Assembly: GCA_963666735.1 (NCBI GenBank)
Contig: OY762926.1
Span: 3,616,001-3,680,000, forward strand
DNA from: Gemmatimonadota bacterium
GTDB lineage: Bacteria > Gemmatimonadota > Gemmatimonadetes > Palauibacterales > Palauibacteraceae
Direction of reading: 5' to 3'
Length of the DNA: 64,000 bases
Part shown: in pieces, positions 6,143 to 26,447 of the stretch
Layout of the letters: the number at the start of each line of letters is the position of its first letter
Numbering within the stretch: position 1 is the first letter of the stretch
Notes under the pieces: model-generated
What the model saw: the letters and a program-made list of their open reading frames with translations, nothing else
Databases searched by the model: none
Told to the model about the DNA's origin: nothing
Program-made: the position numbers and the translations under genes

Positions 6143-6295
6143 CGCGGGGCTTACACTAAAGGCTGTGCCGGTTCTCCTGCGTCAGTCCGACGATTCGCTC
6201 AACCGATCCACGCCGCGATTCGCGACCGGGCCGCGTAAGCCCTGACACACCCGCCTCGGCACCCGCCAGACTACCCAGACGGCGATGATGTTGCG

Positions 6296-7066
6296 TTGAG
6301 GTGCTGCGGTATCGCTACGTGTCGTGACATGCACAACTCCACCAATGGGAGCGCCATGATCGCCTATTGCCTCGCGGACGTGTTCAACCTCGAACTCTGG
6401 CCTCGCCACCGCCTGCCGGTGCAGCTCGCGGTTGAAGATGGCCTTCGCGACCTCGTCGGTCAGGTGAACTCCGCAGTGCCATCGGCCACCGAGGTCACGA
6501 TCCGCCTCTACGGCGGGTGGCATCGAGAGACGCTCAAAGCACCGGTCGACATCCGGCACATGATGGAGCGAGCCATCGAAAACAACCCCAAGAGATACCG
6601 GGCACAGAGAATTCGGGTTCAGCTTGCCGACCATCCCATCTGGGATCCGGGCACACCCCTCCTGCGTTCGCTTCGCGACTCGCCGCTGATGCGCGTACAC
6701 GCCCAGGTGACCCCATCGAAGCAGTGCTTCTCTCCGGCCACTTGCACGTCCGAAGCGCTTCGCAGCTGGTGTACGGGAACCTGTCCCGAGTCACGTTGTC
6801 CCGTGACGCTACGGCAGATTGCCCACCGCACTCGCCAGAAGATGGTGGATACGTTGCTCACGGCCGACGCGATGGCGATAATTAAAGACCGCCTTGCCCA
6901 CGCCGTCGTTCTTGCGAGCGACGATAGCGACATGATCCCGGCGCTGCTCGCGCTGTCGGCCTCCGACATCCAGCTCACTCATCTTCGCCGCCACGTCGCT
7001 GGTGGTTCCGTGGGCATGTATGATTCCGTATTCGACGAAACCGGTACGCACATCAGGAACTGGTAA
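6296..7066 (+). CDS. NYN (LabA/DUF88-like, PIN-fold) putative ribonuclease with Cys-rich insert
   Basis: Candidate DxxN (DMHN), IRLYGGW, QKMVDTLLTAD, VVLASDDSDMIPAL; start uncertain (frame open from 6239). Confidence 0.7.
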   Translation: MRCCGIATCRDMHNSTNGSAMIAYCLADVFNLELWPRHRLPVQLAVEDGLRDLVGQVNSAVPSATEVTIRLYGGWHRETLKAPVDIRHMMERAIENNPKRYRAQRIRVQLADHPIWDPGTPLLRSLRDSPLMRVHAQVTPSKQCFSPATCTSEALRSWCTGTCPESRCPVTLRQIAHRTRQKMVDTLLTADAMAIIKDRLAHAVVLASDDSDMIPALLALSASDIQLTHLRRHVAGGSVGMYDSVFDETGTHIRNW

Positions 7067-7069
7067 TCC

Positions 7070-9334
7070 ATGGACCGATTTGCGGAAATCAAGCGCGACA
7101 TCGCTCTCTTCGCCGACCCCGGTTCGGAAGTGATGGTCGAGGGCGAGCTCCTGCTATGGCAAAAGGATGGCATCGAACAGGGTGCCAGGCTGACGCAGCG
7201 CCCCGGCGATTTCCCGGACGTTAAGGTCGAGGGAGGGCAGGCGATGCCGTATAGGACCTTCCTCGCCAGCTCTCATCTAGCCGACCTCGGCAGCTTGGCC
7301 GAGTTCATGCTCAAAACCATTCCGCGATTGGACCACTACGTCGAAACGCGCGCCGGCGCGACCGGCGAGGACTCCCCAACCGCATCGTCCGCCGAACGCC
7401 AAAACGCGGACAAGCTCATAGCATCACTCGCCCGGAACCTGCCGTACGGCTCGACTCGCGTGATCCTTGTGCAAGGCGCGGCGGGGTCCGGCAAGACGAT
7501 GGTCCTGAAGAACATGACCTTGGCTCAGGCCGGGAGATACCACACCCGATCTGCGGACTCGCTCTTCTTTTACATTGACGCGCAGGGGCGCGCGCTGTCA
7601 CGTCTTGACGATGCGATGGCTCGCGATCTTCAAGACCTTCGGTCGCGCTTCTCGTACAGCGCCGTTCCTGTTCTTGTCCGACGTGGGCTCCTGGTACCGG
7701 TCATCGATGGCTTTGACGAACTGTTGGGGAGCGGCGGTTACGACGAGGCGTTCTCTTCGCTGGCCGCTTTCATCGCGCGGCTGGAGGGAAACGGTGCCGT
7801 GATTGCCTCGGCTCGCTCTACTTTTTTTGACTACAACGCCTTCCGCCAGAACGCGGAGAGATACGCACACGATGGCAAGCTCAACTACGAGGTTGCGTCG
7901 GTAGACATCGAACCCTGGACGGATGCCGACGCGGACGAACTCGTGGCAAAAGCCGGTGATCCGGATCTCCTGACGGACTTCCGGCGCTTCCGGGGCACGC
8001 TGGATGAATCAAACCGGGCCCTGCTCAGAAAACCGTTCTACGTGTCGCGGATCGCGGCTCTCTTGACGGACGGCCGCCAGCTCGATTCGCATGAGGCGAT
8101 GCTCGACACGCTAGTCAACGCCTTCCTCGAGCGAGAGCGCGAGAAAGCCCAAGGTAGAGATGGCAATCCACTGCTCGACGTGAACGGCCATCGCCGGCTC
8201 TTGGTCATGCTCGCGGAGGAAATGTGGTGGCTGGAGGCGCGCCGACTCGACTTGGAGACGGTTCGGACGGTAGCGGAACTAGTGATGGATGAACTGGGCG
8301 TACCAGTCGATTCGGCGTGGCAGATCATCGAACGGATGCCATTCTATGGGTTGCTTCGCACGAGTGGCACGGGTGTCGGGAACCTGCGGTTCGAACATGA
8401 GATGTTCTATGGATACTTCCTAGCCGATGCCCTCAAGCGATGCATAGAGGGAGAGCGCGGAGAGCTTCGGCGGTTCTTGGCGCGCTCGGTGATCGACGAG
8501 TCCGTGGTGGATCAAGTCATTGCCCTGTATGACGGAGACGTGGATGCCTGCACGGACGCGGCGGTCAAGATATGTGGTGTCCTGCGGCGAGGGTTGGGCG
8601 ACAGCGTGGCTCGGCAAAATGGCGGTCGCTTCGTAGCACGGGCGATCAAGATCGGCGGGCGGCTGCGGAACGGGGTCAAGCTGAAGCATCTCTATTTCGA
8701 CCAGGATGATTTCGGTCAAGCGGTTCTGACGGAGCCGCAGTTTCAGAACTGCTACTTCGACCGCACAGACTTCACAGGCCTCAAGATGGTAAGACCGGGA
8801 TTCAGGGAGTGCACGATTCAGATGCCCAAACTGAGTCTGAATGGCACGCGGCTGGCAGAGGCGGATCCGGAGCTAGCCGACATGATGACGGGTGTCGAGA
8901 TCATCTCAAATGGCCATCGGGCCGGAGAACCGCCCACAAGGATTTACGCGCCTGAGCAGGTAAGGGAGGTCTTGATTCGATTGGGGATGAGGGGTGAGGA
9001 GAGCGGCGAGACGGGACCCAAGTACAATGACCGGCAGCGAGACCGCATACGATTGGTTGAGCGATTCCTCCTGAAAATGGAGCGCCGCTTCTACGTAGCA
9101 GCGGAGGATTTCGGTCGCCTCGGCTTGGCCGGTAGTCCTGAGTGGGACACCGTGTACGGCCTGCTCAAAGAATGTGGAATGACGAGAGAGGAGCGGCGGC
9201 CGATGTCCGGCCCGAGCAAGCCGCTGGTCCGCCTAAGCTACCCCGCAACCGTCATCCGGAGCGGCGAGAATACGGAAGACGGCCGGCATCCAGAAGTCCA
9301 GCGCTTCTGGCAGGAATTGTTGAACGCGAGATGA
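7070..9334 (+). CDS. NACHT/STAND-type P-loop NTPase with pentapeptide-repeat-like C-terminal region
   Basis: Walker A GAAGSGKT, Walker B VPVIDGFDE, sensor IASAR, LRKPFY, winged-helix motif FEHEMFYGYFLA; periodic F/L every 5 residues (FQNCYFDRTDFTGL). Confidence 0.8.
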   Translation: MDRFAEIKRDIALFADPGSEVMVEGELLLWQKDGIEQGARLTQRPGDFPDVKVEGGQAMPYRTFLASSHLADLGSLAEFMLKTIPRLDHYVETRAGATGEDSPTASSAERQNADKLIASLARNLPYGSTRVILVQGAAGSGKTMVLKNMTLAQAGRYHTRSADSLFFYIDAQGRALSRLDDAMARDLQDLRSRFSYSAVPVLVRRGLLVPVIDGFDELLGSGGYDEAFSSLAAFIARLEGNGAVIASARSTFFDYNAFRQNAERYAHDGKLNYEVASVDIEPWTDADADELVAKAGDPDLLTDFRRFRGTLDESNRALLRKPFYVSRIAALLTDGRQLDSHEAMLDTLVNAFLEREREKAQGRDGNPLLDVNGHRRLLVMLAEEMWWLEARRLDLETVRTVAELVMDELGVPVDSAWQIIERMPFYGLLRTSGTGVGNLRFEHEMFYGYFLADALKRCIEGERGELRRFLARSVIDESVVDQVIALYDGDVDACTDAAVKICGVLRRGLGDSVARQNGGRFVARAIKIGGRLRNGVKLKHLYFDQDDFGQAVLTEPQFQNCYFDRTDFTGLKMVRPGFRECTIQMPKLSLNGTRLAEADPELADMMTGVEIISNGHRAGEPPTRIYAPEQVREVLIRLGMRGEESGETGPKYNDRQRDRIRLVERFLLKMERRFYVAAEDFGRLGLAGSPEWDTVYGLLKECGMTREERRPMSGPSKPLVRLSYPATVIRSGENTEDGRHPEVQRFWQELLNAR

Positions 9335-9524
9335 TTCCCCGGCGTCACGAGGCTACAAGCCGAAGTGGATCTCGCCGCGGCCGAGCGATTCGACGCCGAC
9401 CTCCCGTAGACCGCGCTGGATACGCTCTGCGAGCCAATGTGCGCGGTGATACCTGAGAGTCTTGCAGTCTCCATCGGTCAGGTAAACCGTGTTGAGTTGC
9501 TGCGTGATGCAGTGCAGTTGTGAC

Positions 9525-11262
9525 CCCGGATCCTGCGATCATGGGCACGAGGCTGGTCCGGGAGGGCGGCCCGCATCCGGGCCGCGGAGGCCGTGACGAT
9601 AGCGAGAGCATAGTGTTGGACTATGGAAAAGCACCATCCGGGGCCCTACGTTCAGAGGGACTGGACAAGAGTTCACCCCGGAACGGAGGACACCCGAATG
9701 GTGCGTGGAAACGACTATACCGGATCGCGCACGCACGTGCAAGGATCGCCGGCGGCGCCGGGGGTCCGCGGGGGCGGCGGACGGATCACCGACGCGGGCG
9801 GCCTGGTCGTGGTCCGGAGGCTGTGGGACGCGCTGGGGCTGGGCCGTTGGATCGACGACCGGACCGGGAACGTCCCCGGCCGCTACCGGCCGTCGCTGAT
9901 GGTCGAGTTGTGGGTGGCGCTGCTCCTGTACGGCGGCGGGGTGATGGACGACCTGCCGCTTCTCGAGCGGCGGGGGGTACGCCGCATCTTCGGCTGGAGG
10001 CGGGTGCCGCACCCGGCCACGTTCGGGCGCTGGCTGCGGCGCTCGGCCGCGGTGATGTCCCCCCTGCTCGACGAGCTTCTGTGGCGGATGGTGCGGCGGC
10101 GCTGGGAGATGGCCGGCGGGGCGCCCCGGTCGGCGACGGTCGTCATGGACTCGACCGTCGTGGTGCGCTACGGGCTGAGACAGGCCGGGGCGGAGAAGGG
10201 CTACAATCCGAAGAAGCCGGGCCGTCCCTCGCACCATCCGCTGCTGGCCTACGTCTTGGAGACGGGCGACTGCCTCGGGGTGCGCTGGCGGCCGGGCAAC
10301 GCGCACACGGCCGGGGGAGCCGAGGCGTGGCTGGCCGGGCTGGTGGCCCGCCTGAGGGAGGCGGGGGTGCGGGACATCACCGTGCGGCTGGACAAGGGGT
10401 TCTTCTCCAAGCGCATCGCGGCGAGCATGGAGGAGCTCGGCGTCTCCTATCTGCTCAAGGTGCCGCGGTACGGCTGGCTCGACGGCTTCCGGGGCGCCTG
10501 GGAGACGGCCACCGCCGACGGGGCCGGGGACCGGGAGCTGAGGACCGCCTCCGGCGAGCTGTGGGGGACGCGGCTTCTCTCGGTCGAGAGGCGGAGACGG
10601 ACCGGCCCCGCGGAGGGGGAGCTCGATCTCGAGGCGTGGGAGACCGCGATGAGCGCCGACGTTCTGACCAACATCCGGGGCATCGGCCCCATCGAGGCGT
10701 GGCGCGCCTACAACGCGGGCGCGGTCGTCGAGCAGCGGATCGAGGAGTTGGGCCAGCTTTCGGCCGGGCGCACCGCGGTGGACGATCTGGGCGGAAACGC
10801 CCTCCTGTGGGGCCTCGCCGCGCTCGCCTACCAGCTCCTCCACATCCTGCGCGCGAACTGCCTCGGCCGTCGGTGGCGGGTCGTACAGCCGCGCGGCATC
10901 CGGCTGCGCCTGCTGCGCGCCCCGGCCAGGATCACCTCCCACGCCCGCCGAACCTCGCTCGGGTTCGCGCGCGGCGAACCGGCCCTCGGCCTCCCGCGGC
11001 GGGCGCTCCGCACCATCGAGAACGGCCTCCCGCCGCCCGCGCCCGCCTGACCGACCCCGGACCCGGCCTTGCGAAGGCGCCGCGCGGCGGCGCCCCGTTC
11101 CCGTGTCTCCGCGCGCCGCCCGGGGTCCCTCCCGAACCCCGCCGGCCCCCCACCGAGGCCCGGTCCGGCCCCGAAAACGCCACCACCCGCGCCAAGTCGC
11201 CACAGCCGCAGATCATAACCGCGCCTCCGGCCGTCCGACTATGCGCCAACGCAGGATCCGGG
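9525..11262 (+). mobile_element. IS1380-family insertion sequence, 1738 bp
   Basis: 13-bp perfect terminal IR cccggatcctgcg (9525-9537 / 11250-11262); 5-bp direct repeat GTGAC at 9520-9524 and 11263-11267. Confidence 0.88.
9623..11050 (+). CDS. IS1380-family DDE transposase (start uncertain)
   Basis: TDAGGL, VMDST, GYNPKK-GRPSHHPL, RPGNAHT, VRLDKGF, YN..VEQRIEE. Confidence 0.85.
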   Translation: MEKHHPGPYVQRDWTRVHPGTEDTRMVRGNDYTGSRTHVQGSPAAPGVRGGGGRITDAGGLVVVRRLWDALGLGRWIDDRTGNVPGRYRPSLMVELWVALLLYGGGVMDDLPLLERRGVRRIFGWRRVPHPATFGRWLRRSAAVMSPLLDELLWRMVRRRWEMAGGAPRSATVVMDSTVVVRYGLRQAGAEKGYNPKKPGRPSHHPLLAYVLETGDCLGVRWRPGNAHTAGGAEAWLAGLVARLREAGVRDITVRLDKGFFSKRIAASMEELGVSYLLKVPRYGWLDGFRGAWETATADGAGDRELRTASGELWGTRLLSVERRRRTGPAEGELDLEAWETAMSADVLTNIRGIGPIEAWRAYNAGAVVEQRIEELGQLSAGRTAVDDLGGNALLWGLAALAYQLLHILRANCLGRRWRVVQPRGIRLRLLRAPARITSHARRTSLGFARGEPALGLPRRALRTIENGLPPPAPA

Positions 11263-12124
11263 GTGACAAATCACTGAGGTTCCACCAGCTGATTCGTATG
11301 AAGCTGATAGCCGCGAAGATGTGACGCCGTCCCTCTCGTATCCCCTCTGAGGAGTCATCAAAAATCTGTTGGTGGATGCGCTCTGCGAGAGAGACGTGTT
11401 CCTCCCGCAGGACATTGAGGACAGGCGACCCGTGCTCAAAGCGCACCGGCCAGTCCGGCGAAAGACAATCTGTCAGGTCTACAACTAGGGCACCACCGTG
11501 GAAGCGCTTACGTACGACACCGTCGTCCCGTTTGAGCAACAGCTGCTTCGCTGCCTTCGAGACCATGTTGCGGACGTGGCCAAGACTCTCGGGTCGCTTC
11601 ACTTCCACGGAATATTGCTTCGTGCTCTCCGTGATTATGACATCTGGACTCTTCCCGTCCTTCTTGAGCTCTACGCGGCCGGGTGCCGTTCCGCTCGCGG
11701 CAATCATGGCGATGGCCCAAAGTTCGCTCTGCGCCCGATAAGCCGCGTGCGGGGTCAGCCCAAGGCGGCCGCCGATTGCATCTCGGAAGGCTGTGATGAT
11801 CGGGCGCGGCTTGCAGGGGCCAAGCATGTTGCCGATTACCCAGAAATTCTGCGCGTCGCGAACCGCATGGGCGATCCGTACCAGATCTACACGCGAGCCC
11901 GAAAAAGCGCCGGACGGCCTAACGGATCGTAGTACGCGGACGGTCTCCGCCACGCGGCTGCTCCCGGATACGGGGATCCCCGCCCAGCGCTTGATCTTGC
12001 CTATCGTGTCCTCCAGACGGTCGGCAAGGAGCGGCATGGCATCCGGGGTAAGGTGTCTGTTACTCGTCGGGGTCATTAGAGGCAGCTTGCATCTCGTTGG
12101 AGACGTGGCGGTGCCAGGGCGGAC

Positions 12125-15100
12125 TTAGGCGGACTTGAGGTCGTCGGAGACTTCGGCCAGCGCCGTGTCGATGCCGGCCCGTTCCTCGTCCGAGATGTCG
12201 CCGGTGAGTCTGACGGAGACCTCGAAGCCGAGTTCGGCGGAGCCGGCGGCGGCGAGGAGGTTCGGGGCCCTGTCGGCCAGTTCCTGTAGCTGTCCCACAT
12301 CGAGCTTGGCGGCGGCGGGCGGCGGGGGGGGTGTTAGAGGGCTGTCCTGGCGGACCCGTATCTTGAGTTGTGTGGCTTGATCGTACTCGCAGTCGGGGTT
12401 GGCGCTTCCGTCCGCGAGCACGAGCCAATGTGCGTTGATCGCGGCGCGGATTCCCTCGCGCACGAGCCCCCACGGAAGATTCGTCGAGTGTTCCTGCGAG
12501 AGCGCTTGGGCGAGGGTCAGGCCGGTCGTGGCGTCGTCGCGCCAGGCGGCGGCCTGGATGGCTTCGGATCGAAGATCTTGCGGCGTCAACGGGTCCGGTG
12601 GCGGGCGGAGTGTCGCCTTGTCGTTCAGCGCTCCTGCGGGCACTGGCTCCTTCCAGGAGGTAGCGGGGGGATTCGTAAGCCAGACGGTGCCCGACTCCAC
12701 CGCCTGCCCCACAGTTTCCAGCACCGTGTCGGCGGGGCACGCCGGAATCGTGACCATATCGTCGTAGTGGTCGCGGGGGATCTTCGCGACATGCCCGCCC
12801 GCGAAGTAGTTCAGGAGCGTCGCGACCGGCAGGACCGAGCCGGTTTCGCCGCTGTCGTCGTCCGTCCACAGGCTGGGCAGCGTCCCGGGAGCGAGCAGCG
12901 GTTCCGGCAGCCGGGTGAGTTCCGCCTTCTCCGGCAGGACGATCTCCAGCGCCTCGTCACTCGCCGCCTCGGCCTCCACCGGTTCGCGCCACCGCGTGCG
13001 GAAGCTGCCGTCGGGCCGTCTCAGCCGGGCGACGAACAGGCCCTCGCGGACCCCGGCCATTACCGTATCGGTGACGAGCTTTGGCCTCAATACCTTCGGG
13101 AGCCTTGGATGCCGGGCGAAGGCCCCGGCCAACTGGCTCGCGAAACGCGCGTCGTCTCCCTCCTGCCAGAGGTCGTACGGTCCGCCGGGAAGGAGGGCCT
13201 CGGCGTTCACCGGCGTGTCGGTGAGGCGCGTCTTGTCGTGTCCCTTGATCTCCTCAAAAAGCGGCTGTCCGCTGGCGGGGAGCTTGAAGGCGTGAACGCT
13301 GTTCTCCGCGTCCACCGTCACGACGATCCCGTAGGCCTGTCGAATGACGCTCGGCAACTCCGCCTGGGTGTTGGTCTTCTTGCGCCGGAGGCGTTGCGAC
13401 CGCACCGGATCCACCGTTTGGGTCGCGAGCTGCGATTCCACGTCCTCCCAGCCGAGCAGCGCCCGCACTCGGGTGCGCGCCGCATCCAGGCCCTCGCGCG
13501 AAGGCACGGCGATGACCACCGCGTTGCGGTTCACGCGGGGGCGGTTCGGCCCCGTGGTCTCGTCGAGAAACCGCTTCGCGATTCTGCTCGGTTTGCCCGA
13601 CTCCGACGCCGCGTCGGGGCCGAGGATCACGTACCGGAAGCTGCCGTCGTCGGCGACATCTCCGGGCGACTTCGGCAGCACGTGCACGCCTGCCCCGGCG
13701 GCTGCCGCGCCACTCGTAAGGGGCTTCGTCTTGCGGATGAAATCTCCCAGCCGTGTCTCCACCATGTCTGCGGTGACTCGGTCCTTGCAGGCCTGGTCGT
13801 GCATCTGTTTCAGGTTGGGCGCGTTGCCCAGACGCCACGACTTGGGGAGGCCCCGCTCCGCGCCGTAACCGGCCGCGTCGTCCCCGATGTCGGCGTCGTC
13901 GAGGAACCAGGAGGTTTCGCGCCAGCGGAGCAGCCCCTTCTCCAGTTCGATTCTGTCCGGCCCTGAGCCGCCCACGAGCCGGAGCAGCTCAGGCGTTTGC
14001 GCCTTCTGGCCCACCGGCTGCGAGCAGAGAAAGACGGCTGCGACGGCCTGCTCCGCCTCGCGCGCCGGCTGGAGCGCCGCGCACTCACGCTGCACATCCC
14101 GCGCCTTGTCCAGTTCGGCCTCGAGCAGGGGAACCCATTCCGTCTTCTTGCCCTGCACGTCGTCCGTCGAGGCGACGCCCGCGAGTTCCCGCACGGCCTC
14201 GGAGACGTTGGCGGAATCGGGCTCGGCGAGGAGGACGGCGGGACCGACGAGCGGACTCCGGTCCCATGACTCCGCGTCCCGGAGCGCGGTGGCGAGCGTG
14301 CGCAGGATGCCCCGCGTGCGCTGGAAGCTCGCGATCTGCGTCCAGCGACTGTACAGCGCATCCGTCATGTCCGGGTGGAACGGGAAGCTGTGCAGGAACC
14401 GCTCTTCGGCCTCCTTCTTTCCGCGCCGTGTCGTTTCGTCGAGCTTGGCGATGCCCTTCACGATCCCGATCACATGCGGCTTGTATCCCTGCGGATCGCG
14501 GATGCTCTCGGGCTCGAAGAAGCGGCGGCGCAGGACTTCCGCCACATCCTCTCTCTGCACCGGCTGCACGCCCTCCTCGCGCTGCCGGCGAAAGATGTCC
14601 GCGATATCGCGCAGGATCCTTCTGCCCAGGGTATCGGTCGTTCGCGCCGGGTCCGTGGCGAGGATGGACGCGACGATCGCTGCCCGGTCGATCTTCGCCA
14701 CGGCCTGCGTGAGGTACTGGAAGAAGTTCCGCAGGTGCGCCACCCACTCCTCGGCCACGCCCGCCTTGGCATGGGCGTACATCATGACCTCGTCCAGAAG
14801 GATGAGCGTGGCCGTCCCGTCCCGTTGCTGTCGCTCGATCAGCTTGACGAGGAGGGGCTCCGCAGGCGGCGTGTCGCGCTCCTCGTCTTCGTTGTTCGCG
14901 TGCAGCAGGCGGAGACCGTCCGCCCCGGCAAGTTGGAAGGCGAGCACGCTCCAAGGATGCTTGAGCGCGCGCCGCTCTCCGTCGGGGGCGCGCACACCCT
15001 CGATGCCCTTTTCCACATCGATCTTGTCGAAGCAGAGCGCGGCCATCGCGGCGCGGGGAAGGTGGGAGTCCGCGTGCTCGCGGAACTCCCGAACCGCGGC

Positions 15101-15451
15101 GATGTCCGGCAGCCCGCCGGGATCGTGGAACAGGTGATGGAGGGTGATGAGGGTATGCGTCTTGCCGCCGCCGTACGTCATCTCAAGCTGGCGGACGGCC
15201 TTGCTGTTCTGCCCCGCCAGTCGCCCCGCGACGTCCCGCACAAGCTCCCGCAGTGCGTGCGTGGGGTAGGTCAGTGCGAAGAACTTCTCTGGATCCTCGT
15301 AGATGGGCCGCTTCCCCGCCTCCGTGACCACCTCGTGCAGGTCGGCGGCGAACTCGGCGAGCGAGAGCTCCCCGGAACGTAGTTCCGGCTTGAGACGAAC
15401 GATCTCGTGCCAAGGCGCGGGGGTGGGCATGGTGACTATCCGTTGGGACAC
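12125..15451 (-). CDS. DUF499-family AAA+ ATPase (alternative start ATG 15430)
   Basis: PWHEIV, EFAADL, YEDPEKFFALTYPT, Walker A YGGGKTH, Walker B LILLDEV, VLRRRFFE, FPFHP, FQRTRGILR. Confidence 0.88.
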   Translation of the reverse strand: MSQRIVTMPTPAPWHEIVRLKPELRSGELSLAEFAADLHEVVTEAGKRPIYEDPEKFFALTYPTHALRELVRDVAGRLAGQNSKAVRQLEMTYGGGKTHTLITLHHLFHDPGGLPDIAAVREFREHADSHLPRAAMAALCFDKIDVEKGIEGVRAPDGERRALKHPWSVLAFQLAGADGLRLLHANNEDEERDTPPAEPLLVKLIERQQRDGTATLILLDEVMMYAHAKAGVAEEWVAHLRNFFQYLTQAVAKIDRAAIVASILATDPARTTDTLGRRILRDIADIFRRQREEGVQPVQREDVAEVLRRRFFEPESIRDPQGYKPHVIGIVKGIAKLDETTRRGKKEAEERFLHSFPFHPDMTDALYSRWTQIASFQRTRGILRTLATALRDAESWDRSPLVGPAVLLAEPDSANVSEAVRELAGVASTDDVQGKKTEWVPLLEAELDKARDVQRECAALQPAREAEQAVAAVFLCSQPVGQKAQTPELLRLVGGSGPDRIELEKGLLRWRETSWFLDDADIGDDAAGYGAERGLPKSWRLGNAPNLKQMHDQACKDRVTADMVETRLGDFIRKTKPLTSGAAAAGAGVHVLPKSPGDVADDGSFRYVILGPDAASESGKPSRIAKRFLDETTGPNRPRVNRNAVVIAVPSREGLDAARTRVRALLGWEDVESQLATQTVDPVRSQRLRRKKTNTQAELPSVIRQAYGIVVTVDAENSVHAFKLPASGQPLFEEIKGHDKTRLTDTPVNAEALLPGGPYDLWQEGDDARFASQLAGAFARHPRLPKVLRPKLVTDTVMAGVREGLFVARLRRPDGSFRTRWREPVEAEAASDEALEIVLPEKAELTRLPEPLLAPGTLPSLWTDDDSGETGSVLPVATLLNYFAGGHVAKIPRDHYDDMVTIPACPADTVLETVGQAVESGTVWLTNPPATSWKEPVPAGALNDKATLRPPPDPLTPQDLRSEAIQAAAWRDDATTGLTLAQALSQEHSTNLPWGLVREGIRAAINAHWLVLADGSANPDCEYDQATQLKIRVRQDSPLTPPPPPAAAKLDVGQLQELADRAPNLLAAAGSAELGFEVSVRLTGDISDEERAGIDTALAEVSDDLKSA

Positions 15452-15909
15452 AGGTCGGTTCGGTTGAGCAGGTCCCGTCGCCGCTTCACCGCCTTCCCGC
15501 TCTCACAGGTCGGATAGATGCGTCCGCGGGGGCCCGCGATCAGAGCTGGGTTCTTGAAATCGGCGCGTAGATCCCCATCGCGGGAGTAGAGGAGCCGGGC
15601 ACGGCTCACCCGCGCCAGCGCTATGATATGCTCGTCCTTCGACCTGCAAAGCCGTTTTGCGCGTACGGCCGACGTTTCCTGTTCGACCGTTTCGTCAGGG
15701 AATCGTCTCACCCGGCCGCCAAGGATCCCTTCCTTAACCCAAGCGCGGAACTTGCCGTTCTCGGAGAGTTCCTCCAGTAGCTTGCCACCGACGACGAGAC
15801 GGGCGCGCGGCGTTTCGAGCCAGTCAAAAAACTGTTCTCCCGGTGGAGCGCGGTCCGGAGTAAACACTTCCCCCAGAACGTTGACGTCGATGATTGCGCA
15901 CATGTTCAA
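15436..15909 (-). CDS. PIN-like domain protein
   Basis: AIIDVNV, DEHIIALA, LLYSRDGDL acidic PIN pattern; overlaps the ATPase stop. Confidence 0.7.
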   Translation of the reverse strand: MNMCAIIDVNVLGEVFTPDRAPPGEQFFDWLETPRARLVVGGKLLEELSENGKFRAWVKEGILGGRVRRFPDETVEQETSAVRAKRLCRSKDEHIIALARVSRARLLYSRDGDLRADFKNPALIAGPRGRIYPTCESGKAVKRRRDLLNRTDLCPNG

Positions 15910-17321
15910 AGCCCTAGGGATCTGCGAGTCTCGATTCTAAAAAACTCGCGGTAGCCGTCCGGTATCGCGCCATCTTGCGCCACCAAGTTGCCGTTGGCGT
16001 CCCACGCCAGCGAGTGGATCGTCACCGAGAGGTTCCGGCGTTTGAAGTACAGGATCGACACGTCTTCAGGTCTCAGCTTGCTCCGACCATCGCGCACGTC
16101 CATCCGAATGCGATCCATGAGGTGGTCGCTGTGCGTCTCGACGAGGAGTTGGCGTCCTCGAGCGGCCACATCGCAGAACAAGCTGCCGAGTGCGGCTTGT
16201 GCGCTAGGGTGAAGATGGACCTCTGGCTGTTGTAACAAGAACATCTCCGGTCCCTGCGGGCGAAGAAGTTCGGTAACGATGGGGAGCACCTGGCTTACTC
16301 CGTAACCGACGTCGATTATGTTCCGGCGGGGTCCCTTGGCGCGTGTGCCAAACTTCCTGATTTGAATCTGAAAGGGTCCGCCGACCTGCCCACCGAGTGT
16401 CTTGATGGCGATCTCATCGAAAAGGCCTGCCTCCTGCCCGAACGTTTCAAGCGACGACTTGAGGGATTCCCATGTGCGGTCGTTCCGGCGTGCAGCGCTC
16501 GACAGAAACATGGGGATGTGCTCGCCCTCCGCATCTTCAAGCGGATGCGACGGATCGTACGTTCTACGTGGGTGTGAGCGAACAGGCGCGCTCGAAAACG
16601 GTCGTGCGGAGCGCCCCTCGATCGGCGGCTCAAGGCCGAAGAGTTCCTCAATATCCTCCTTGGTCGGTGAGACTCTAGTACCGCTTGACGCGTCGGGTTG
16701 CGCGGATTCCGATACGGTCCTGCCGAGGAAATATCGAACCAAGAATCCGAGAGGAGGTAGCCTGCGTTGCTGGATGTCCGAGAGTGCAGGCGCCAGACCC
16801 CACGATCCGCCTCTGAGGTCTGGACGCTTGAGTTCCCACTTCCCATTACGTGTTGAGAACCGAAGCGAGACGTCCACGCCGTCGCCGGGGATGCAGGCCT
16901 CCACCCACGCGCTCTTGCTTTCGATGCGCCGTACGCTCGGGACGGGAGCGGCACCGTCGCGGCGGAACGTGGCGCGAAACCGGAATGCATGGTTCCGCGC
17001 GGTTGGGATCGGCCTATCTTCATGTTGCCGCGCTCCCCCTTGGTCTTCCCAGGAAAGCTCTGCTCCGAACTCCACCGCACGGCCGCCTCTGCCACCGCGG
17101 TGATGCGCGATCTCATCGAAACTACCGAGATCATACGGCGGCTCTTTGAAGTCGGGAAACCGGTCGTGGAACGCAACGTCCCAGAGGACCTGTAGGAGCG
17201 CGAGGAACGACGTTTTGCCCGTGCTGTTTTCTCCTACTAGGAGCGTGAGCGGTGCAAGACGGGCCGTCTGCTTCCGCCGGAAACACCGGAAATCGGACAA
17301 GCTGAGTTCGTTAATGTGCAT
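15906..17321 (-). CDS. ABC/AAA_21-type ATPase (DUF3696-like C-terminus)
   Basis: LSDFRCF, Walker A GENSTGKT, signature VGYGVSQ, LLQQPEVHLHP, H-loop VETHSDH. Confidence 0.85.
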   Translation of the reverse strand: MHINELSLSDFRCFRRKQTARLAPLTLLVGENSTGKTSFLALLQVLWDVAFHDRFPDFKEPPYDLGSFDEIAHHRGGRGGRAVEFGAELSWEDQGGARQHEDRPIPTARNHAFRFRATFRRDGAAPVPSVRRIESKSAWVEACIPGDGVDVSLRFSTRNGKWELKRPDLRGGSWGLAPALSDIQQRRLPPLGFLVRYFLGRTVSESAQPDASSGTRVSPTKEDIEELFGLEPPIEGRSARPFSSAPVRSHPRRTYDPSHPLEDAEGEHIPMFLSSAARRNDRTWESLKSSLETFGQEAGLFDEIAIKTLGGQVGGPFQIQIRKFGTRAKGPRRNIIDVGYGVSQVLPIVTELLRPQGPEMFLLQQPEVHLHPSAQAALGSLFCDVAARGRQLLVETHSDHLMDRIRMDVRDGRSKLRPEDVSILYFKRRNLSVTIHSLAWDANGNLVAQDGAIPDGYREFFRIETRRSLGL

Positions 17322-17456
17322 CGTACCGACCAGACTCCTTGGGTCGTCGTGGACGCAAGGTTACGCCCACGGCAGGGGTGGCGGAAGGCTGGCCACCTCG
17401 CCGTGCATGAACGGACGCATATGGTTCGGGACCGAGGGCGGGTCGGCACGCGTCAC

Positions 17457-20400
17457 TCAGAACAGGGATCCCTGTTCTCGTGCCGTTGAAGTCTCCGTAG
17501 GGCCCCCGCCGCGCAGGTGGTTCTGCACCGATTCCAGCAGGGCCCGCTCCTCGGGGCCTCCCTCTGCTAGTTCGATAATGGCCTGCACAACGCTGGCAAA
17601 CAGTTCGTGCTTCCACAGCCCGCGGTCGCTGAGGTAGCTGTTGACGCGGGCTTGCTCCCCAGTTTTCCAGAGTTGCATGACCTTGTGCACACAGTCGATG
17701 AGCGCCGGGGGCGCGCCATCCGGCGTCGGGTGACCCAGCCGGGAGCCGCGCCGTTGGTTCCACCCCTTGAGGCGGACCTCGCTGCCCGATGTCTGCGGTG
17801 CCTCCTCGCCTTCCTCGTCGGACGCAGGAGCCGAGGCCCTCCCACCGCGGACGAGTAGGTTGTGCCTGCTCGCCAGATCGGCATCGGACAGATTGCACGA
17901 GAGCGCGTACAGGATGCACGCGCCGGCGGGGGCTACCTCCAGACCGAAATCGTTCCGGTGCAGCAGGTAGTAGGTCGTGACGTCGTCCAGCTCCGTCGCC
18001 GAACCGTTCCGCTGGGAAAGCAGCTGGCCTACGACGAAACCGACCACCATGCGTCGAACGTGTCGCAGGAAGTCCGCCACGGTCAGAACGTCACCCGGTC
18101 GGTCGGCTCGCTTGACGACGGGATGTCGGCTGAACGCCTCCAAAGCCGGCCCCGTGGCCGACCATACGAAGTCGGGTCCGCGAATCCCCGCATCCCAGAA
18201 GTCGCGCAGCCGCTGAGTGATCTTCTCCCGCATTTCGGTCAGGACCGGGCCCTCCCAGCCTTGCGTGGCGGTCATCGGCCGCTTGCGGCACACAAGCCAA
18301 ATCGATGACGCAAGCGCGGCGGAGGACAGCGCGCGCTGCCGAGTCTGCATTTCGGTCTGGATCGGCCACGAACCCGTCACCACGAACCCTGCCCGGATCA
18401 ACGCCGACACAAGCGTTTCCCACGCATCGGGGCTCTTGTTCGCAAACACGATGACCAGCCGGCCATCGTCGCCAAGAGCCTCGTGGAAGCCACGGAATGC
18501 CCGCGCCATCCCGTCTTCGTAGTTGTTCTTGGAAGCTTCCCGATCTCCCTCGAACCGGCTCGCGTCGTCGATAAGCTCGCCGTCGGAAGCGCCGGACTCC
18601 CACTTTGGACCCAAGGGGTCCGCGAAGGCCGCATCCGTCGCGGATGAGAAACCGTGCAGCACACGACGAAGCCAGACTTGAAAGAAGTCCGTCAAGTCCG
18701 AATACGGGATCGCATCATAGTACGGCGGGTCGGTGCAGATGACGTCGAGCCCGTTCGGCTGGGCGGCGATTGCGCTCCGGGTCTCAACTTCCACGGAGGG
18801 TGCATGCGACCCGGCGGGCAGGGCATGATCGGTCCAGCGTGCGACCCAATCAAGCATGCCCTTGAACCCGCCGGTTGTGGCCGACAGCGGATTCACTTCG
18901 CAATAATCCCACACCATCGGGAGCGCGAACCGTGCGAATGTTTGGCGGAGCTTTTCGCCACTATTGTGCCACGAGCAGATCGCGCTGCTGTAGTCGGTCA
19001 GCTTGCTGAACGCGCACGCCAGATATGCCGTAAACGCCTCCCGCCACTCGACCGGGTAGCCATCCATCTCGGTCGCAACGGCGCGGATCTCGCGCCCGAA
19101 CGTTCCCAGGGCAAGCAGCTGGCGGCGCGTGAACAGTTTGTCCCAAGAGTCGAAGCCATAGCGCGCCACCCGCATGCCGAGGGCCTCCTCGTGCGCAGTC
19201 GGTTCGTTGGGCATGCCGAAAGGGAAGTCCGAGTACAGCGCCTCAAGCTCGCTCTTGCCAATACTCGCGGCTTCGATGTCTTGCTCGGTCGGATGTCGGT
19301 ACTCCTTACCGGTCTGTCCATCCACCACCACGGCCGTCATCCGGGCGCCAAGCCGTCCCGACCGGCCTTGAGCGCGCAACTCGGCCATCCTGGTCACGGC
19401 CGCGCAGTTCGGGCACTCGACCCCGCTCGCGCTCATGGTGCCCGCGCCGAGCACCTGGTCGTGCTGCCGCTGCTGAGCGACCGATCCCGATCCCTTCGGC
19501 ACGTCCGTCGCCACGGCGAACTCGACCCCGCGTCCATCGGCTCGCTTCGTCAGCGTCAAGAGAACCCGCTTCACTGGGGCCGTCTTCTTGCACAGCCAGC
19601 GCGTCTTGAGGAGCGGGATCTCGGCTCGGCAGCCGCCGCACTCGGTCGTGCGCGCCCACAGATAGGCTACGACCGGCTTGGCCACCCAGCGCGGGTTAGC
19701 TTCGTCTTTCAAGTAGGCCTCGTCAAAACCGGCGTTCAGCGCATCGACCGATACACGCCCGTCCGAAGCCGGATCGAGTAGACGGGGCTCTCGCCGCTTG
19801 TATGGCTTGGGTTCCGCCCGCGACGCCCGTGCTCGGCCCCTGCGACGCACGGGCTCGAACTCGGCATAGGCCGGATATCGTGTGGCCAACTGCCGCCTGA
19901 CGCCTTCAAGTACGCGCAGGCTCCACGCCCGGACGTGCCAGGCAAAGTCGGCCTTGGCGTTGGCGTCGTCTCGAAGCAGCGAGGAGGAAAGCTGTACGTC
20001 GCCGCCATCGCGGTGTCCCAGCTCGGCGAGTGCGTTTCGGATCTGGACCTTCGTGCGCGCGCCGCGGGATTTGACGAGCGCGGTGGCGAAGTGCCGGTCG
20101 CGCAGCGCAAACTCGGGCAGCGCCCTCTCCTCCCGTCCCACAAGTTTCGGGTAGTGAAGCGTACAGCGAAGGATGAACCACGCGACCGGATTCAGGTCGG
20201 AAGCGAACGTCTTGCACCCCAGCCGCATCGCCTCCAGCGGAATCGCGCCCCCACCCGCGAAGGGATCCAGCACCCTCGGCGCTCGCCCACCGAACGCCTC
20301 TCGTATCTCCTCCCGCAGACGGTCCAACTCGGGGTCGGTTTCCCGCCCCCAGTGCAGCACCCCACCCGCCGTCTCCTTGAGCTTGGGATCCTCTGCGCCG

Positions 20401-20639
20401 CCTTTGAGCTTCTTGGGCACCAGCCGTCCTGCGATACGCCGCCCCAGTTCGCGCCGACCCTCGTCTTCACCGGGATCGGGCAACAGCGTGGCCAGCAGCA
20501 TCGCCCGGCTCGCCGCCAGCGGCCTCCGCGCCGGCCAGATGTGAAGCGTGGAGATGTGACCGTGCCGCACATTCTTCTCGTGCACCGAATCCAGCGAAAT
20601 CTGCCGTAGCGGCAGCGTCGTCTCGGCTAGGCGTCTCAT
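17457..20639 (-). CDS. DUF1156 adenine-specific DNA methyltransferase
   Basis: LHIWPARRPL, motif I DPFAGGG, CxxC Zn ribbons, motif IV TDPPY; ATG 20639 overlaps upstream stop (TGATG). Confidence 0.9.
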   Translation of the reverse strand: MRRLAETTLPLRQISLDSVHEKNVRHGHISTLHIWPARRPLAASRAMLLATLLPDPGEDEGRRELGRRIAGRLVPKKLKGGAEDPKLKETAGGVLHWGRETDPELDRLREEIREAFGGRAPRVLDPFAGGGAIPLEAMRLGCKTFASDLNPVAWFILRCTLHYPKLVGREERALPEFALRDRHFATALVKSRGARTKVQIRNALAELGHRDGGDVQLSSSLLRDDANAKADFAWHVRAWSLRVLEGVRRQLATRYPAYAEFEPVRRRGRARASRAEPKPYKRREPRLLDPASDGRVSVDALNAGFDEAYLKDEANPRWVAKPVVAYLWARTTECGGCRAEIPLLKTRWLCKKTAPVKRVLLTLTKRADGRGVEFAVATDVPKGSGSVAQQRQHDQVLGAGTMSASGVECPNCAAVTRMAELRAQGRSGRLGARMTAVVVDGQTGKEYRHPTEQDIEAASIGKSELEALYSDFPFGMPNEPTAHEEALGMRVARYGFDSWDKLFTRRQLLALGTFGREIRAVATEMDGYPVEWREAFTAYLACAFSKLTDYSSAICSWHNSGEKLRQTFARFALPMVWDYCEVNPLSATTGGFKGMLDWVARWTDHALPAGSHAPSVEVETRSAIAAQPNGLDVICTDPPYYDAIPYSDLTDFFQVWLRRVLHGFSSATDAAFADPLGPKWESGASDGELIDDASRFEGDREASKNNYEDGMARAFRGFHEALGDDGRLVIVFANKSPDAWETLVSALIRAGFVVTGSWPIQTEMQTRQRALSSAALASSIWLVCRKRPMTATQGWEGPVLTEMREKITQRLRDFWDAGIRGPDFVWSATGPALEAFSRHPVVKRADRPGDVLTVADFLRHVRRMVVGFVVGQLLSQRNGSATELDDVTTYYLLHRNDFGLEVAPAGACILYALSCNLSDADLASRHNLLVRGGRASAPASDEEGEEAPQTSGSEVRLKGWNQRRGSRLGHPTPDGAPPALIDCVHKVMQLWKTGEQARVNSYLSDRGLWKHELFASVVQAIIELAEGGPEERALLESVQNHLRGGGPTETSTAREQGSLF

Positions 20640-21799
20640 CACGAGGCCTTTTGGTAGGTTGATTCGGCGTCGCTGGTCCAGCCTCGAACGGTATCCGCCG
20701 CCTCCTGCGGAGCGGCGACGATGTCTATCTCCTCTACAACTTTTTCTCCGTGACCGTACCCGCTCGCCACCCCTCGCCGCTCCACCCGCGTCCGCCGGCT
20801 CAGGATGCGCTTCGTTGGCCACGCCTCACGGATCGCTTGCTCGCACGTTTCGGCCGTACGCTCCTTCGCTCCGCAGCGGACCAGAACGACTCCGTCCTCT
20901 CGCAGATGCCTCTTGGCCCTTTGGAACACCGTTGTCATGAGCGAACGGTATTCCCGCAGGTTCGTGTGTTTCTGCGTGCGCCGCCAATTCTTCCGCAGCG
21001 GTTCGCCCAGAATCCAAAGACGTATCCAATGGTCGTTCCAATAATCCGTCACGTCATGGTACGGAGGCGAGGTGATCAACAGCTTCGCGCGACATGGCCC
21101 GAGCTGCGCGAGTTTGCGGCGTGCATCACCGAGGAACGGTTTGGACGGCGCCATCGCGGGGAGGCCGAAAGCGTATCTTCGTGCAATTCGATCCGTCAGG
21201 AACGCGACCGGGTCGGTCGCGGGCGGCGTCATTAGCCCTCGCGCGGTCCACCAGCGCACGGCATAGGACGCCGAGTGCGCGACGGTCGGCGAGAAACGGT
21301 TCGACAGCCCCTTCGGATAACTGTCCTGCATGTGCAGGGCCACGAACGCCATCAGCGTCCGGTCCACGCGGGAGCTTCGCCAGTCGAGCTCACGCCGGGC
21401 GGCCTTGAGGAATCCTCGGACGTCAGGTGCCCAAGCCATGGTCTCAAAACGGCTTCGGGATCGGCGGTCGACCGGGCGGACAGCTCTTCCGATCGCCCGG
21501 ACACGCGCCAATACGCGCTTGGGCTGCTGAGCCGGCAACAACTTCGCCGCCGTGAAGAGCCACGCCACCGGCTGAATATCCACCGCGACTGCGGGCCTGC
21601 CGAGGGCCGCCGCCACGAAGGGGGCGTTCCCGCGGCCCGAAAACGGGTCCAGAACCATGTCTCCTGGCGCGGTGAAGGTCGTGACCGCCCGGGTCACGAA
21701 GGGTGCCGGGAACATCGCATAGTATCTGCCCAAGCCGTACCAACGGTGCTCCGCCGTGTTCGCAGGCCATGGAAGGCGGGAGATGCCGTAGGTCTTCAT
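20639..21799 (-). CDS. Amino-DNA methyltransferase (SPPY, likely m4C)
   Basis: YYAMFP, motif I LDPFSGRG, motif IV LITSPPY. Confidence 0.85.
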   Translation of the reverse strand: MKTYGISRLPWPANTAEHRWYGLGRYYAMFPAPFVTRAVTTFTAPGDMVLDPFSGRGNAPFVAAALGRPAVAVDIQPVAWLFTAAKLLPAQQPKRVLARVRAIGRAVRPVDRRSRSRFETMAWAPDVRGFLKAARRELDWRSSRVDRTLMAFVALHMQDSYPKGLSNRFSPTVAHSASYAVRWWTARGLMTPPATDPVAFLTDRIARRYAFGLPAMAPSKPFLGDARRKLAQLGPCRAKLLITSPPYHDVTDYWNDHWIRLWILGEPLRKNWRRTQKHTNLREYRSLMTTVFQRAKRHLREDGVVLVRCGAKERTAETCEQAIREAWPTKRILSRRTRVERRGVASGYGHGEKVVEEIDIVAAPQEAADTVRGWTSDAESTYQKAS

Positions 21800-23094: not shown

Positions 23095-23099
23095 TCGCG

Positions 23100-25232: not shown

Positions 25233-25346
25233 AAAAGCTTGTCCTCCCCGTCGTTGCTGGTGTTGTTGATATGCTCCCGGAAGGTGCCCCGCCCAAGCTT
25301 CCGAGCCGTTGGAGACTAATCGAGTTTCCGGGAACGCGTTCTTCAG

Positions 25347-26447
25347 TCACGCGGCGTGCGCCTCGATGTGTGAGCGGATCGTATCGCCGATGGCGGTCGC
25401 CAAGCCAACCGGAACGGCGTTGCCGACGTGGCGTCCGACGCGGGCGAACCGAACGGGGTCGCCGGGGGCGGTGAACTGGTAGCTCCGGGGGAAGCTCTGG
25501 AGCAGCGCCGCCTCACGAAGGGAGATCGCGCGGTCCTGAACGGGATGGCCGAAGCGCCCCCGCCCAAACGAGAAACACCCCGTCGTCAGGGTCGGAGCGG
25601 GTTTGTCCCACTCCATCCGGCCGTACACGTTCTTGTAGCTCGCGCCGCCGCGCCGACGATGGCACGGAGAAACGAGATCCGGGTCATCCCATTCGGACCA
25701 CGGCCTCCCGGGCTTGGCCGCGCGGATGCGCCGGAGGTTCAGCAGCGAAAGTCGAGACGCGCAGTGTAGTTGATCGTGGGGACACACCTCACCCGCGTCG
25801 AGCGCGGGCAGGTGACCTATGGCGTGCCGAACCGTGCGGCGTGGACCGGGGGACGGAGCGGGAACGGCGATGGGGCCGAGCCTCGAGGCCAGCACGACAA
25901 GTCGGCTGCGGTCCTGCGGTACGCCGTAGTCCGCAGCGTTGACGACCTTGTCAGCCGCTTGGTAGCCCGCCCGCCCGAGCCGCTCAAGGAAGCGGTCGAA
26001 TACCCTTCGCCCTTGGAACGACTTGAGTCGGGGGACGTTCTCCATCGAAACGATCTCGGGCTCGAGCGCTACGACCCGATCCATGAAGAGATCCACGAGC
26101 GACCACTTGTCGCGGGGCTGACCAGAGCCCGCGCTGTAGGGAGAAAACGGCGTACAAGGCGCGCAGCCCACGAGGATGCGCCGGCAGCCCTTGGGGAACA
26201 TCGCACCTATCTCTGCGACCGACACTTCCTCCAGCCGTCGGCCCACGAAGGCCGCATCGTTGTTCGCCTCGAACGCGTACCGGCACTTCTCGTCGGCGTC
26301 GACGCCCGCCACGACGTTGAACCCCGAGCGACGGAGCCCGTGGCTCAGTCCTCCGATCCCGCAAAAGAGATCGATCACCGCCCAGCCGGGGATACCTTCG
26401 ACGGTGGCACCTACCTCATCCGCCTCCGGCCGCTCCCGATCCGGCAT
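25347..26447 (-). CDS. DNA (cytosine-5)-methyltransferase
   Basis: DLFCGIGG, GCAPC, MENV, YGVPQDRSR, YGRMEW, GNAVP. Confidence 0.93.
   Translation of the reverse strand: MPDRERPEADEVGATVEGIPGWAVIDLFCGIGGLSHGLRRSGFNVVAGVDADEKCRYAFEANNDAAFVGRRLEEVSVAEIGAMFPKGCRRILVGCAPCTPFSPYSAGSGQPRDKWSLVDLFMDRVVALEPEIVSMENVPRLKSFQGRRVFDRFLERLGRAGYQAADKVVNAADYGVPQDRSRLVVLASRLGPIAVPAPSPGPRRTVRHAIGHLPALDAGEVCPHDQLHCASRLSLLNLRRIRAAKPGRPWSEWDDPDLVSPCHRRRGGASYKNVYGRMEWDKPAPTLTTGCFSFGRGRFGHPVQDRAISLREAALLQSFPRSYQFTAPGDPVRFARVGRHVGNAVPVGLATAIGDTIRSHIEAHAA

Follow-up and report, generated by a model that had tools for sequence, protein, structure and literature searches.

A NYN-family gene and a NACHT NTPase gene form a conserved, apparently undescribed pair, probably a variant of NLR-like defence

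How could an NLR-like protein with no recognizable enzyme domain act, and does the gene just upstream of it supply the effector? Two adjacent genes raise this question in a 64,000-nucleotide stretch of contig OY762926.1 from a Gemmatimonadota bacterium (hereafter the window, meaning the whole stretch analysed); the first encodes a NYN-family protein with a PIN-like fold, and the second a NACHT-type (STAND) NTPase. An earlier note, made from the sequence alone, had placed a NYN/PIN-fold gene 3 bp before the gene for a 754-residue NACHT NTPase, and both open reading frames (ORFs) are indeed there. The two genes are a real and conserved module that is apparently undescribed, and probably a variant of NLR-like defence. 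On balance we favour the reading that it is an NLR-like abortive-infection (anti-phage) system, in which the NACHT protein would sense infection and switch on a separate, docked NYN ribonuclease (RNase) as effector.

The upstream ORF encodes 236 amino acids and ends in TAA, three bases before the NACHT ATG at 7070. Translation most probably begins with the ATG at 6356 and not with a TTG at 6296, because the called protein has 236 residues and close homologues begin at the same methionine. Contigs of two public runs span positions 5500-9647 with zero differing letters, so neither ORF is an assembly artefact; a run of a second study matches the same stretch in pieces. One run labelled as a sponge metagenome also contains the stretch and may be where it came from. 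The public runs listed as holding the stretch include no RNA run, and a promoter and terminator scan gave nothing beyond shuffled sequences and no plus-strand promoter.

The first protein is likely an RNase, having both the PIN-like fold, as modelled, and the acidic residues expected of one. Its Pfam NYN match reaches 25.2 bits (cut-off 24.2), and 52 of 60 close homologues match the same family at E 0.01. For the AlphaFold 2 (AF2) model (pLDDT 89.7), in which the fold begins at residue 1, the top VIA fold is the MARF1 NYN domain (Z 12.9, root-mean-square deviation (rmsd) 3.0, 140 aligned), followed by VPA0982 (Z 11.0, rmsd 3.7, 147 aligned), with unrelated rows at Z 9 or below; Foldseek returned no match of the model to the PDB at E 0.001. 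Residues D8, K162, D165, D190 and D192 are kept in all 82 NYN homologues from the loci. The acidic metal-binding motifs are DxxN, QKxVD and SxDxD, their aspartates being equated with the three of MARF1 by motif position and not by superposition. The protein shares its fold and acidic active-site motif with the NYN family (MARF1, LabA/DUF88, VPA0982), but it belongs to a distinct subfamily, marked by the likewise invariant, family-specific Y52-x-G54-W55 (the RxYGGW motif), by a Cys4 insert that some members lack and by its fixed neighbour, NACHT. The family comprises 1031 clusters (50% identity) at E 0.001, a count that takes in weak matches to ordinary NYNs, and 644 at 1e-10.

The Cys-rich insert described in the earlier note is real, although only four of the cysteines in the string it quoted are conserved: Cys 124, 130, 143 and 148 are invariant in 60 close homologues, while Cys139 is not conserved. 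The insert likely binds zinc. It is found in 50 of the 82 locus homologues and has been cleanly deleted from one large clade; because this clade still keeps its NACHT partner, the insert is accessory.

The second protein consists of an 85-residue N-terminal domain, the NACHT module, a short beta-helix and a 105-residue C-terminal domain. It matches Pfam NACHT at 33.1 bits (cut-off 26.7) and contains both the GxxGxGK[ST] Walker A and the hhhhDxxDE Walker B motif. The best folds for its AF2 model (pLDDT 89.1, pTM 0.86) are NLRC4, NOD2 and NLRP3 (Foldseek NLRC4, E 1e-15; VIA NLRP3, Z 13.9, rmsd 5.0, 412 aligned). Model residues ~70-576, which form the nucleotide-binding domain (NBD), helical domain 1 (HD1), winged-helix domain (WHD) and helical domain 2 (HD2), align with the NACHT modules of NLRP3, NOD2 and NLRP9 at Z 13-14. 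Walker A residues G139, G141 and K142 are invariant in 113 homologues and in 89 of the 89 locus proteins counted, Walker B residues D213, G214 and E217 are invariant across the NACHT homologues, and R249, R355-E356 and H443 of the WHD are invariant or nearly so.

The flanking parts of the NACHT protein are less familiar. The N-terminal domain, modelled as a helix, a beta-meander and two helices, is kept in all clades (D10, F14, D16, Y61, A71 and A77 in at least 90% of 51 sequences); it has no significant match in Pfam, among PDB sequences or in the Atlas and no enzyme signature was found in it, in agreement with the earlier note's description of the N-terminus. The pentapeptide-like region reported by that note does exist, but it is short and internal (residues ~537-596) rather than at the C-terminus, where a conserved domain of ~105 residues follows. 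In the AF2 model this beta-helix is capped by HD2 and the C-terminal domain; it has ~70 residues in roughly three coils (65-77 residues in 75 homologues). In the single protein it falls under the Pfam cut-offs, while the family profile matches MfpA at E 2e-12 and VIA aligns it with alr1298 (Z 10.2, rmsd 2.1, 90 aligned). The C-terminal domain runs helix-helix-helix-hairpin, is winged-helix-like by secondary structure only, and gave no significant family match in Pfam, PDB sequences or the Atlas. Median identity among the NACHT proteins is 44% in the NBD but only 20-22% in the two parts that follow the NACHT module, the beta-helix (20%, the most variable part) and the C-terminal domain. Such divergence is as expected of a sensor, and this C-terminal repeat and small-domain region is a candidate for that role. 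A fold search of viral structures with the NACHT model was unspecific, giving AAA+ ATPases and a single phage protein annotated as NLR.

Do the two genes belong together? A NACHT profile gathered 141 relatives from GTDB genomes, and the counts out of 80 loci below refer to the best 80 of these, among which the nearest named relatives (69-70% identity) are in Candidatus Palauibacter, Gemmatimonadota. A NYN gene or its remnant lies directly upstream in 62 of the 80 loci, including four broken copies (L046, L051, L068, L080) and two that share a frame with NACHT (L037, L061). We do not count the latter two as support for fusion, because L037 has a frame change at the end of its NYN relative to close relatives and the NACHT of L061 is frameshifted; natural NYN-NACHT fusions were also not found among longer proteins (472-2000 residues) with a 64-sequence NYN profile, which is weak evidence. 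Conversely, a NYN profile retrieved 33 metagenome loci, nine of them weak matches to the C-terminal motif of ordinary NYNs without NACHT; of the 24 family-level loci, 18 carry NACHT as the next gene downstream, and the other six contigs end within ~200 bp. All six of the NACHT-bearing genomes among 401 of the phylum have an adjacent NYN. No intact family NYN without NACHT was found among these 401 genomes or the GTDB and metagenome loci; the other NYN matches in the 401 genomes comprise one copy that is frameshifted and followed by a truncated NACHT (G356), one fragment interrupted by four stops (G306) and two weak matches to ordinary NYNs. The two genes lie within 20 bp of each other in 65 of 72 pairs.

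The trees of the two proteins, made with FastTree and carrying long-branch warnings, mirror each other: across 73 pairs the patristic distances correlate with r 0.90, the best of 999 permutations reaching 0.12, and 46 of 70 splits are common to both. Host phyla are interleaved on both trees (Gemmatimonadota, Acidobacteriota, Pseudomonadota, Actinomycetota, Myxococcota, Bacteroidota, Spirochaetota and others). On this phylogenetic evidence, the comparison shows that NYN and NACHT have been transferred as a unit; chance adjacency is rejected, and the co-occurrence that the earlier note proposed to check is borne out. When 7845 ORFs, taken from 113 loci and from the window, were clustered all against all, no conserved third gene emerged, the recurring neighbours (4-10 loci each) being type I restriction-modification (RM), Hma, DISARM-like, AlbA_2 and transposase genes. 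The pair was not found in IMG/VR contigs, PLSDB plasmids or INPHARED phages; its cultured hosts include Methylorubrum rhodinum (L052), Kribbella (L079) and Embleya (L078). One locus, L039, holds two divergent pair copies 2.5 kb apart (7343-10307, + strand, and 12860-15918, - strand), one without the Cys4 insert and one with it.

Modelling of the complex, a further check suggested by the earlier note, predicts that the two proteins bind. ESMFold2 gave a score of 0.64 (runs 0.65, 0.61, 0.64), as opposed to 0.00 for the best of three controls; its mark is passed by 116 of 157 complexes of solved structure and by 2 of 215 mismatched pairs, counts that are approximate here, as custom alignments were used. 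The runs share at least 79% of their contacts, with a partner pLDDT of 79 or more. A sequence search with the NYN family turned up no relative of solved structure, so the model is unlikely to be reproducing a memorized complex of this kind. The predicted core contacts join NACHT 384-404, in the WHD, to NYN 78-87 and 46, a basic NYN loop and strand (78-87) resting on an acidic WHD patch, with further contacts in the NBD (181-233) and HD2 (506-510). Neither the catalytic aspartates nor the Cys4 insert nor the N- and C-terminal parts of NACHT appear among the predicted contacts. The model supports direct binding of NYN at the WHD face. In the one clade of NACHT proteins whose loci lack a NYN (described below), acidic residues at NACHT 226 and 394 and Ser/Thr 397 are replaced, and the interface is more diverged than conservation-matched columns (p 0.015; WHD core p 0.048); three control clades that do have the NYN show no significant divergence of this kind (p 0.10, 0.14, 0.28).

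The genomic setting provides a further line of evidence. In the window, the pair opens a ~25-kb island bounded on one side by a quinone oxidoreductase gene and on the other by a BNR/DUF72 block; besides the pair, the island contains an insertion-sequence transposase, HmaA/B/C, an ABC-ATPase and PIN pair, HerA/NurA and three methyltransferases. The GC content of the pair is 0.60-0.62, versus 0.69-0.74 in four core genes. NACHT occurs in only 2 of 24 other genomes of the genus, in all 24 of which the flanking core DNA is matched, and distribution is patchy more widely (3/41 and 6/401 genomes). In 14 relatives, the slot that follows the quinone oxidoreductase gene either carries nothing or is occupied by VapBC, HicB, Fic or AbiJ-like genes. 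The pair is not part of Hma, because elsewhere it lies beside type I, III or IV RM, BREX, DISARM or housekeeping genes, and because the same Hma island in a close relative (G017) has an Abi_C gene in the pair's place. We scanned the neighbours of 48 pair-bearing loci (up to three per side, 210 ORFs called), 136 with NCBIfam and 98 with PADLOC (50 of those 136, 47 of the remaining 74, and one added). A strong defence neighbour is present in 15 of the 48 loci: type I, IIG, III or IV RM, Dam, BREX, DISARM, Hma or Nsn. Two copies are nested within DISARM (L022, L031), and several loci lie between housekeeping genes (L023, L027, L029, L040, L041, L049, L052, L053). For comparison, the available part of PMC13581612 gives 0.0153 as the chance that a non-defence gene falls within 5 kb of a DefenseFinder system, a criterion that differs from that of our scan.

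NACHT proteins are established anti-phage proteins, according to the accessible text of 10.1101/2022.07.19.500537 and PMC13581612. The sequences themselves show that the two genes are adjacent and closely spaced, are inherited together across phyla, keep their NTPase and nuclease motifs intact and are patchily distributed in a variable slot; together with the predicted docking, this is why we read the pair as an NLR-like system with a docked RNase. By analogy with NLR, Avs and bNACHT biology, a resting, ADP-bound NACHT would carry the NYN. A phage protein (or nucleic acid) could bind the variable beta-helix and winged-helix-like domain at the C-terminus, promoting exchange of ADP for ATP, rearrangement of NBD and WHD, and oligomerization. 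This would cluster or free the NYN, the active site of which is predicted to lie outside the interface, and the NYN would then cleave cellular RNA, causing growth arrest or death (abortive infection). These steps are drawn from the portions available of 10.1101/2022.07.19.500537, 10.1101/2024.12.17.629029 and PMC13581612.

Several observations weigh against this reading. No NYN is detectable in 18 of the 80 NACHT loci, 14 of which form one well-supported clade, mostly Solirubrobacterales; because Walker A and B are intact in this clade, NACHT can evidently be kept alone. The other NYN-less loci are a broken copy absent from the tree (L075) and three single losses within a NYN-bearing clade (L018, L021, L062), with a decayed NYN piece visible by eye in L018. 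Mirror trees are evidence of co-inheritance, which adjacency alone can give, and are not proof of interaction. A strong defence neighbour is missing from 33 of the 48 loci, among the neighbours scanned with one or both libraries. By a strict identity count, the NYN-less clade has lost 2 of the 7 conserved columns of the interface, compared with 34 of 186 elsewhere; because this is no clear excess and the clade represents a single evolutionary event, its interface divergence amounts to a hint only. A different NYN, the Hma-embedded HEC-09, gave no protection in E. coli (10.1101/2024.01.29.577857, as far as its accessible text goes). Finally, bNACHT11 kills via a short non-enzymatic N-terminus, as described in the available part of 10.1101/2024.12.17.629029, and the NACHT protein here has a conserved N-terminal domain.

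The alternative that survives best, although we consider it unlikely, is that the NYN is a guarded toxin following type II toxin-antitoxin logic: it would be active alone, the resting NACHT serving as antitoxin, and a phage trigger or the loss of NACHT would free it; the pair could also act as an addiction module. The parts and the result would be those of the favoured reading, with control by inhibition and release. Intact NYN is not found without NACHT, yet NACHT occurs without intact NYN in one clade and in the single losses L018, L021, L062 and L051. A broken NACHT usually comes with a broken NYN (L046, L068, L080, G356), and the slot holds toxin-antitoxin pairs in relatives. The NACHT monomer model is also nearer to closed NLRC4 (TM 0.41-0.43) than to active NLRC4 (TM 0.26-0.27), and because of this resemblance the docked state may be the resting one. 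However, the catalytic aspartates are not part of the predicted dock, and L061 retains an apparently intact NYN region beside its frameshifted NACHT. The asymmetry itself does not discriminate, because an orphaned NYN would be lost just as well if it had no activity in the absence of its activator; it fits both activation and release.

We give rather less credence to a self-sufficient NACHT with a non-enzymatic N-terminal effector in cis, of which bNACHT11 is a precedent in the part of 10.1101/2024.12.17.629029 available, and in which the NYN would be a back-up effector or a regulator trimming the transcript of the system. A cis effector is kept in play by the 14-member clade, since its NACHT proteins are full length with intact motifs and have no NYN, and the N-terminal domain is conserved in all clades and outside the predicted interface. 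Against it, the catalytic residues of the NYN are invariant across pairs at ~25% identity, and co-inheritance through most of the family exceeds that of the usual optional accessory. Moreover, several of the NYN-less NACHTs adjoin other possible effectors (Schlafen AlbA_2, GmrSD-HNH, JAB-ThiF).

These neighbours of the NYN-less clade can be described further. Seven loci have a gene for Schlafen AlbA_2 and RecG-C (with or without a helix-turn-helix) directly upstream of NACHT: L043 (6274-7971, + strand), L066 (6512-7942, - strand), L069 and L074-L077. It overlaps NACHT and is co-oriented with it in L043, and is divergent in the other six. It is possible that one RNase was here swapped for another, or that the gene is a regulator. 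Elsewhere in this clade, the upstream position is taken by GmrSD-HNH (L035) or by JAB-ThiF together with a small upstream gene (L057).

A role outside phage defence, such as stress-triggered RNA decay or programmed lysis, in the manner of LypABC co-opted for gene transfer agent release, seems to us very improbable. Many loci do lie between housekeeping genes, the available text of PMC13236601 describes an NLR-like system that is located away from defence islands and serves a purpose other than defence, and that of PMC13581612 reports non-defence STAND clades interspersed with defence clades. Nevertheless, the very patchy distribution, the scrambled hosts, the often decayed copies, the low GC and the positions inside Hma, DISARM, BREX and RM loci are what defence genes typically show. 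The idea, following the earlier note, that the beta-helix could be a Qnr/MfpA-like DNA mimic baiting phage DNA-binding proteins is scarcely credible and we reject it: the family profile does match the beta-helices of MfpA, Qnr and HalA (HalA at E 2e-5, far under cut-off) and no part of the protein varies more, but its ~70 residues make up about one third of the 186-217-residue MfpA/Qnr chains, it is internal and capped on both sides, and its net charge is near zero (median -1, range -6 to +6, window copy +1) with no conserved acidity.

Is the favoured system, a NACHT switch with a docked NYN RNase, already known? Neither PADLOC 2.0.0 nor NCBIfam 20.0 has a match for the window NYN. For the window NACHT, these libraries gave only short P-loop matches at E 0.002 or worse; HalA scored 23.9 bits against a cut-off of 250, and since this match is confined to the beta-helix we reject Hailong. 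Nothing came near cut-off when 14 homologues were compared with the system hidden Markov models (HMMs) of the same two libraries. The pair is not described in the literature searched, most subscription papers being outside its reach and the supplements of two STAND surveys possibly listing the family unnamed; the parts available of PMC10853773, PMC13092281, PMC8195603 and 10.64898/2026.10.19.760177 contain no such pair. The earlier note, which did not recognise the pairing as a named system, is therefore borne out within these libraries and this literature.

Known NLR-like systems are nonetheless related: by the features examined, the two proteins belong to the NACHT and NYN families, and the pair would work in the manner of a bNACHT/Avs system. 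Going by the accessible text of Kibby et al. (10.1101/2022.07.19.500537), the likeness to bNACHT lies in the NACHT module with intact motifs and in the C-terminal repeat and small terminal domain, their 'hybrid' sensor class; bNACHT sensors include pentapeptide repeats, and the effectors include the RNases Schlafen and HEPN. Here, by contrast, no recognizable enzyme domain is fused and the NYN gene is a strongly conserved operon partner. With Avs1-24, as presented in what was available of Lee et al. 2026 (PMC13581612), the pair shares the STAND switch, a C-terminal sensor, the defence-island context and a nuclease as likely output, whereas those systems have mostly TPR-like, WD40 or FGE sensors and fused effectors. 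The main text and seven supplements of that paper contain no NYN, PIN or pentapeptide, nor six family accessions, although three larger supplements may hold an unnamed clade.

Effectors encoded in trans are not in themselves new, and the novelty implied by the earlier note was overstated in this respect. The published cases that could be consulted in part are protease-effector modules (PMC12642450), CARD-NLR/LypABC (PMC13236601) and the amyloid-linked NLR/Bell and Bab/Agp pairs (10.1101/2024.11.07.622273). In these, as here, the effector is a separate protein encoded beside the sensor; they are linked, however, by a fused protease, by a CARD-like adaptor or through an amyloid motif, none of which we detect, and the link predicted here is direct docking on the winged-helix face of NACHT. 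Trans effectors of bacterial STAND/NLR proteins are thus already published, and what we did not find in print is a directly docking NYN RNase partner. HEC-09 (Payne et al., 10.1101/2024.01.29.577857) resembles our NYN in that it is a NYN/PIN RNase located within or next to Hma loci and has aspartates like those of MARF1, but it has an extra N-terminal region, and the accessible text mentions no NACHT partner; we reject identity, as the window NYN has no match to its HMM at E 0.1, and only 6 of 64 family members match (best E 1e-4). HEC-03 likewise couples an ATPase to a PIN protein, both needed for defence (same source, available part), but its ATPase is ABC-class and not STAND. It is conceivable, and we propose it tentatively, that the pair represents a widespread NLR class, in which a free-standing NYN binds directly to the NACHT winged-helix switch without adaptor, protease or amyloid link; its sensor, a short beta-helix and a winged-helix-like domain, would fall outside the assigned Avs families, and the NYN would read the ADP/ATP switch rather than N-terminal clustering.

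Table 1. Features of the pair and its island (window coordinates)
Feature	Position	Strand	Basis
Predicted NYN-family (PIN-like fold) ribonuclease, likely effector	6356..7066	+	Pfam NYN, MARF1 fold match, catalytic residues
Cys4 insert C124-x5-C130-x12-C143-x4-C148, likely Zn-binding, accessory	6725..6799	+	Homologue alignments
NACHT (STAND) NTPase, likely sensor and switch	7070..9334	+	Pfam NACHT, AF2, Foldseek, VIA
Conserved N-terminal domain, ~85 aa, outside predicted NYN interface	7070..7324	+	AF2 model, complex model, alignments
Walker A GAAGSGKT, K142	7475..7498	+	Invariant residues
Walker B region VPVIDGFDE, D213-E217	7694..7720	+	D213, G214, E217 invariant
NACHT winged-helix subdomain; 384-404 = core of predicted NYN dock; H443 invariant	8156..8404	+	AF2 and complex models, alignment
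Short pentapeptide-like beta-helix, candidate sensor	8660..8869	+	Family profile, AF2 model, VIA
C-terminal domain, ~105 aa, candidate sensor	9005..9322	+	AF2 model
~25-kb accessory island, context only, not part of system	6145..30750	.	Domain scans, GC, relatives

The island and its slot (Table 1) hold other genes of potential interest. The slot junction is at window position 6142-6150, and within the genus (L129-L142) the slot can also hold a whole Hma island; three of its genes without annotation are candidates for defence or toxin-antitoxin functions (L129:1667-2269, L135:13627-14382, L139:3896-4675). HmaA (26902-30582, - strand) carries an XRE helix-turn-helix at its N-terminus and a NOV_C/DUF3883 domain at its C-terminus. 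Between HmaA and HmaB lie HerA, NurA, an N4/N6 methyltransferase and a C5 methyltransferase (20639-26561, - strand), with no strong match to a named system in Pfam and PADLOC scans. Between HmaB and HmaC, an ABC ATPase (AAA_15/21) and a small PIN gene (15436-17321, - strand) match NsnB, PDC-M55A and HEC-03 in PADLOC and resemble a HEC-03-type pair. Downstream of HmaC, a 287-residue ORF (11213-12076, - strand) has no Pfam, PADLOC or NCBIfam match and has a relative at the same place in L001. Transposase genes are found at 9623-11050 (+ strand) and 34365-35729 (- strand); the former is a DDE_Tnp_1_4 gene, multi-copy, polymorphic in public runs and absent at the same place in L001.

Because bacterial NLR-like proteins are catalogued by their fused effectors, a family that has a dedicated RNase partner in place of a fused enzyme would be missed or classed as effector-less. 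If the proposed role is true, NYN RNases would join the validated anti-phage effectors, the one tested NYN candidate that we found, HEC-09, having failed; docking on the WHD would be a new coupling of an NLR switch to its output; and the small beta-helix would be a sensor whose trigger could be found with existing phage-gene libraries. The system is also compact, with two genes in ~3 kb and clear catalytic and interface residues.

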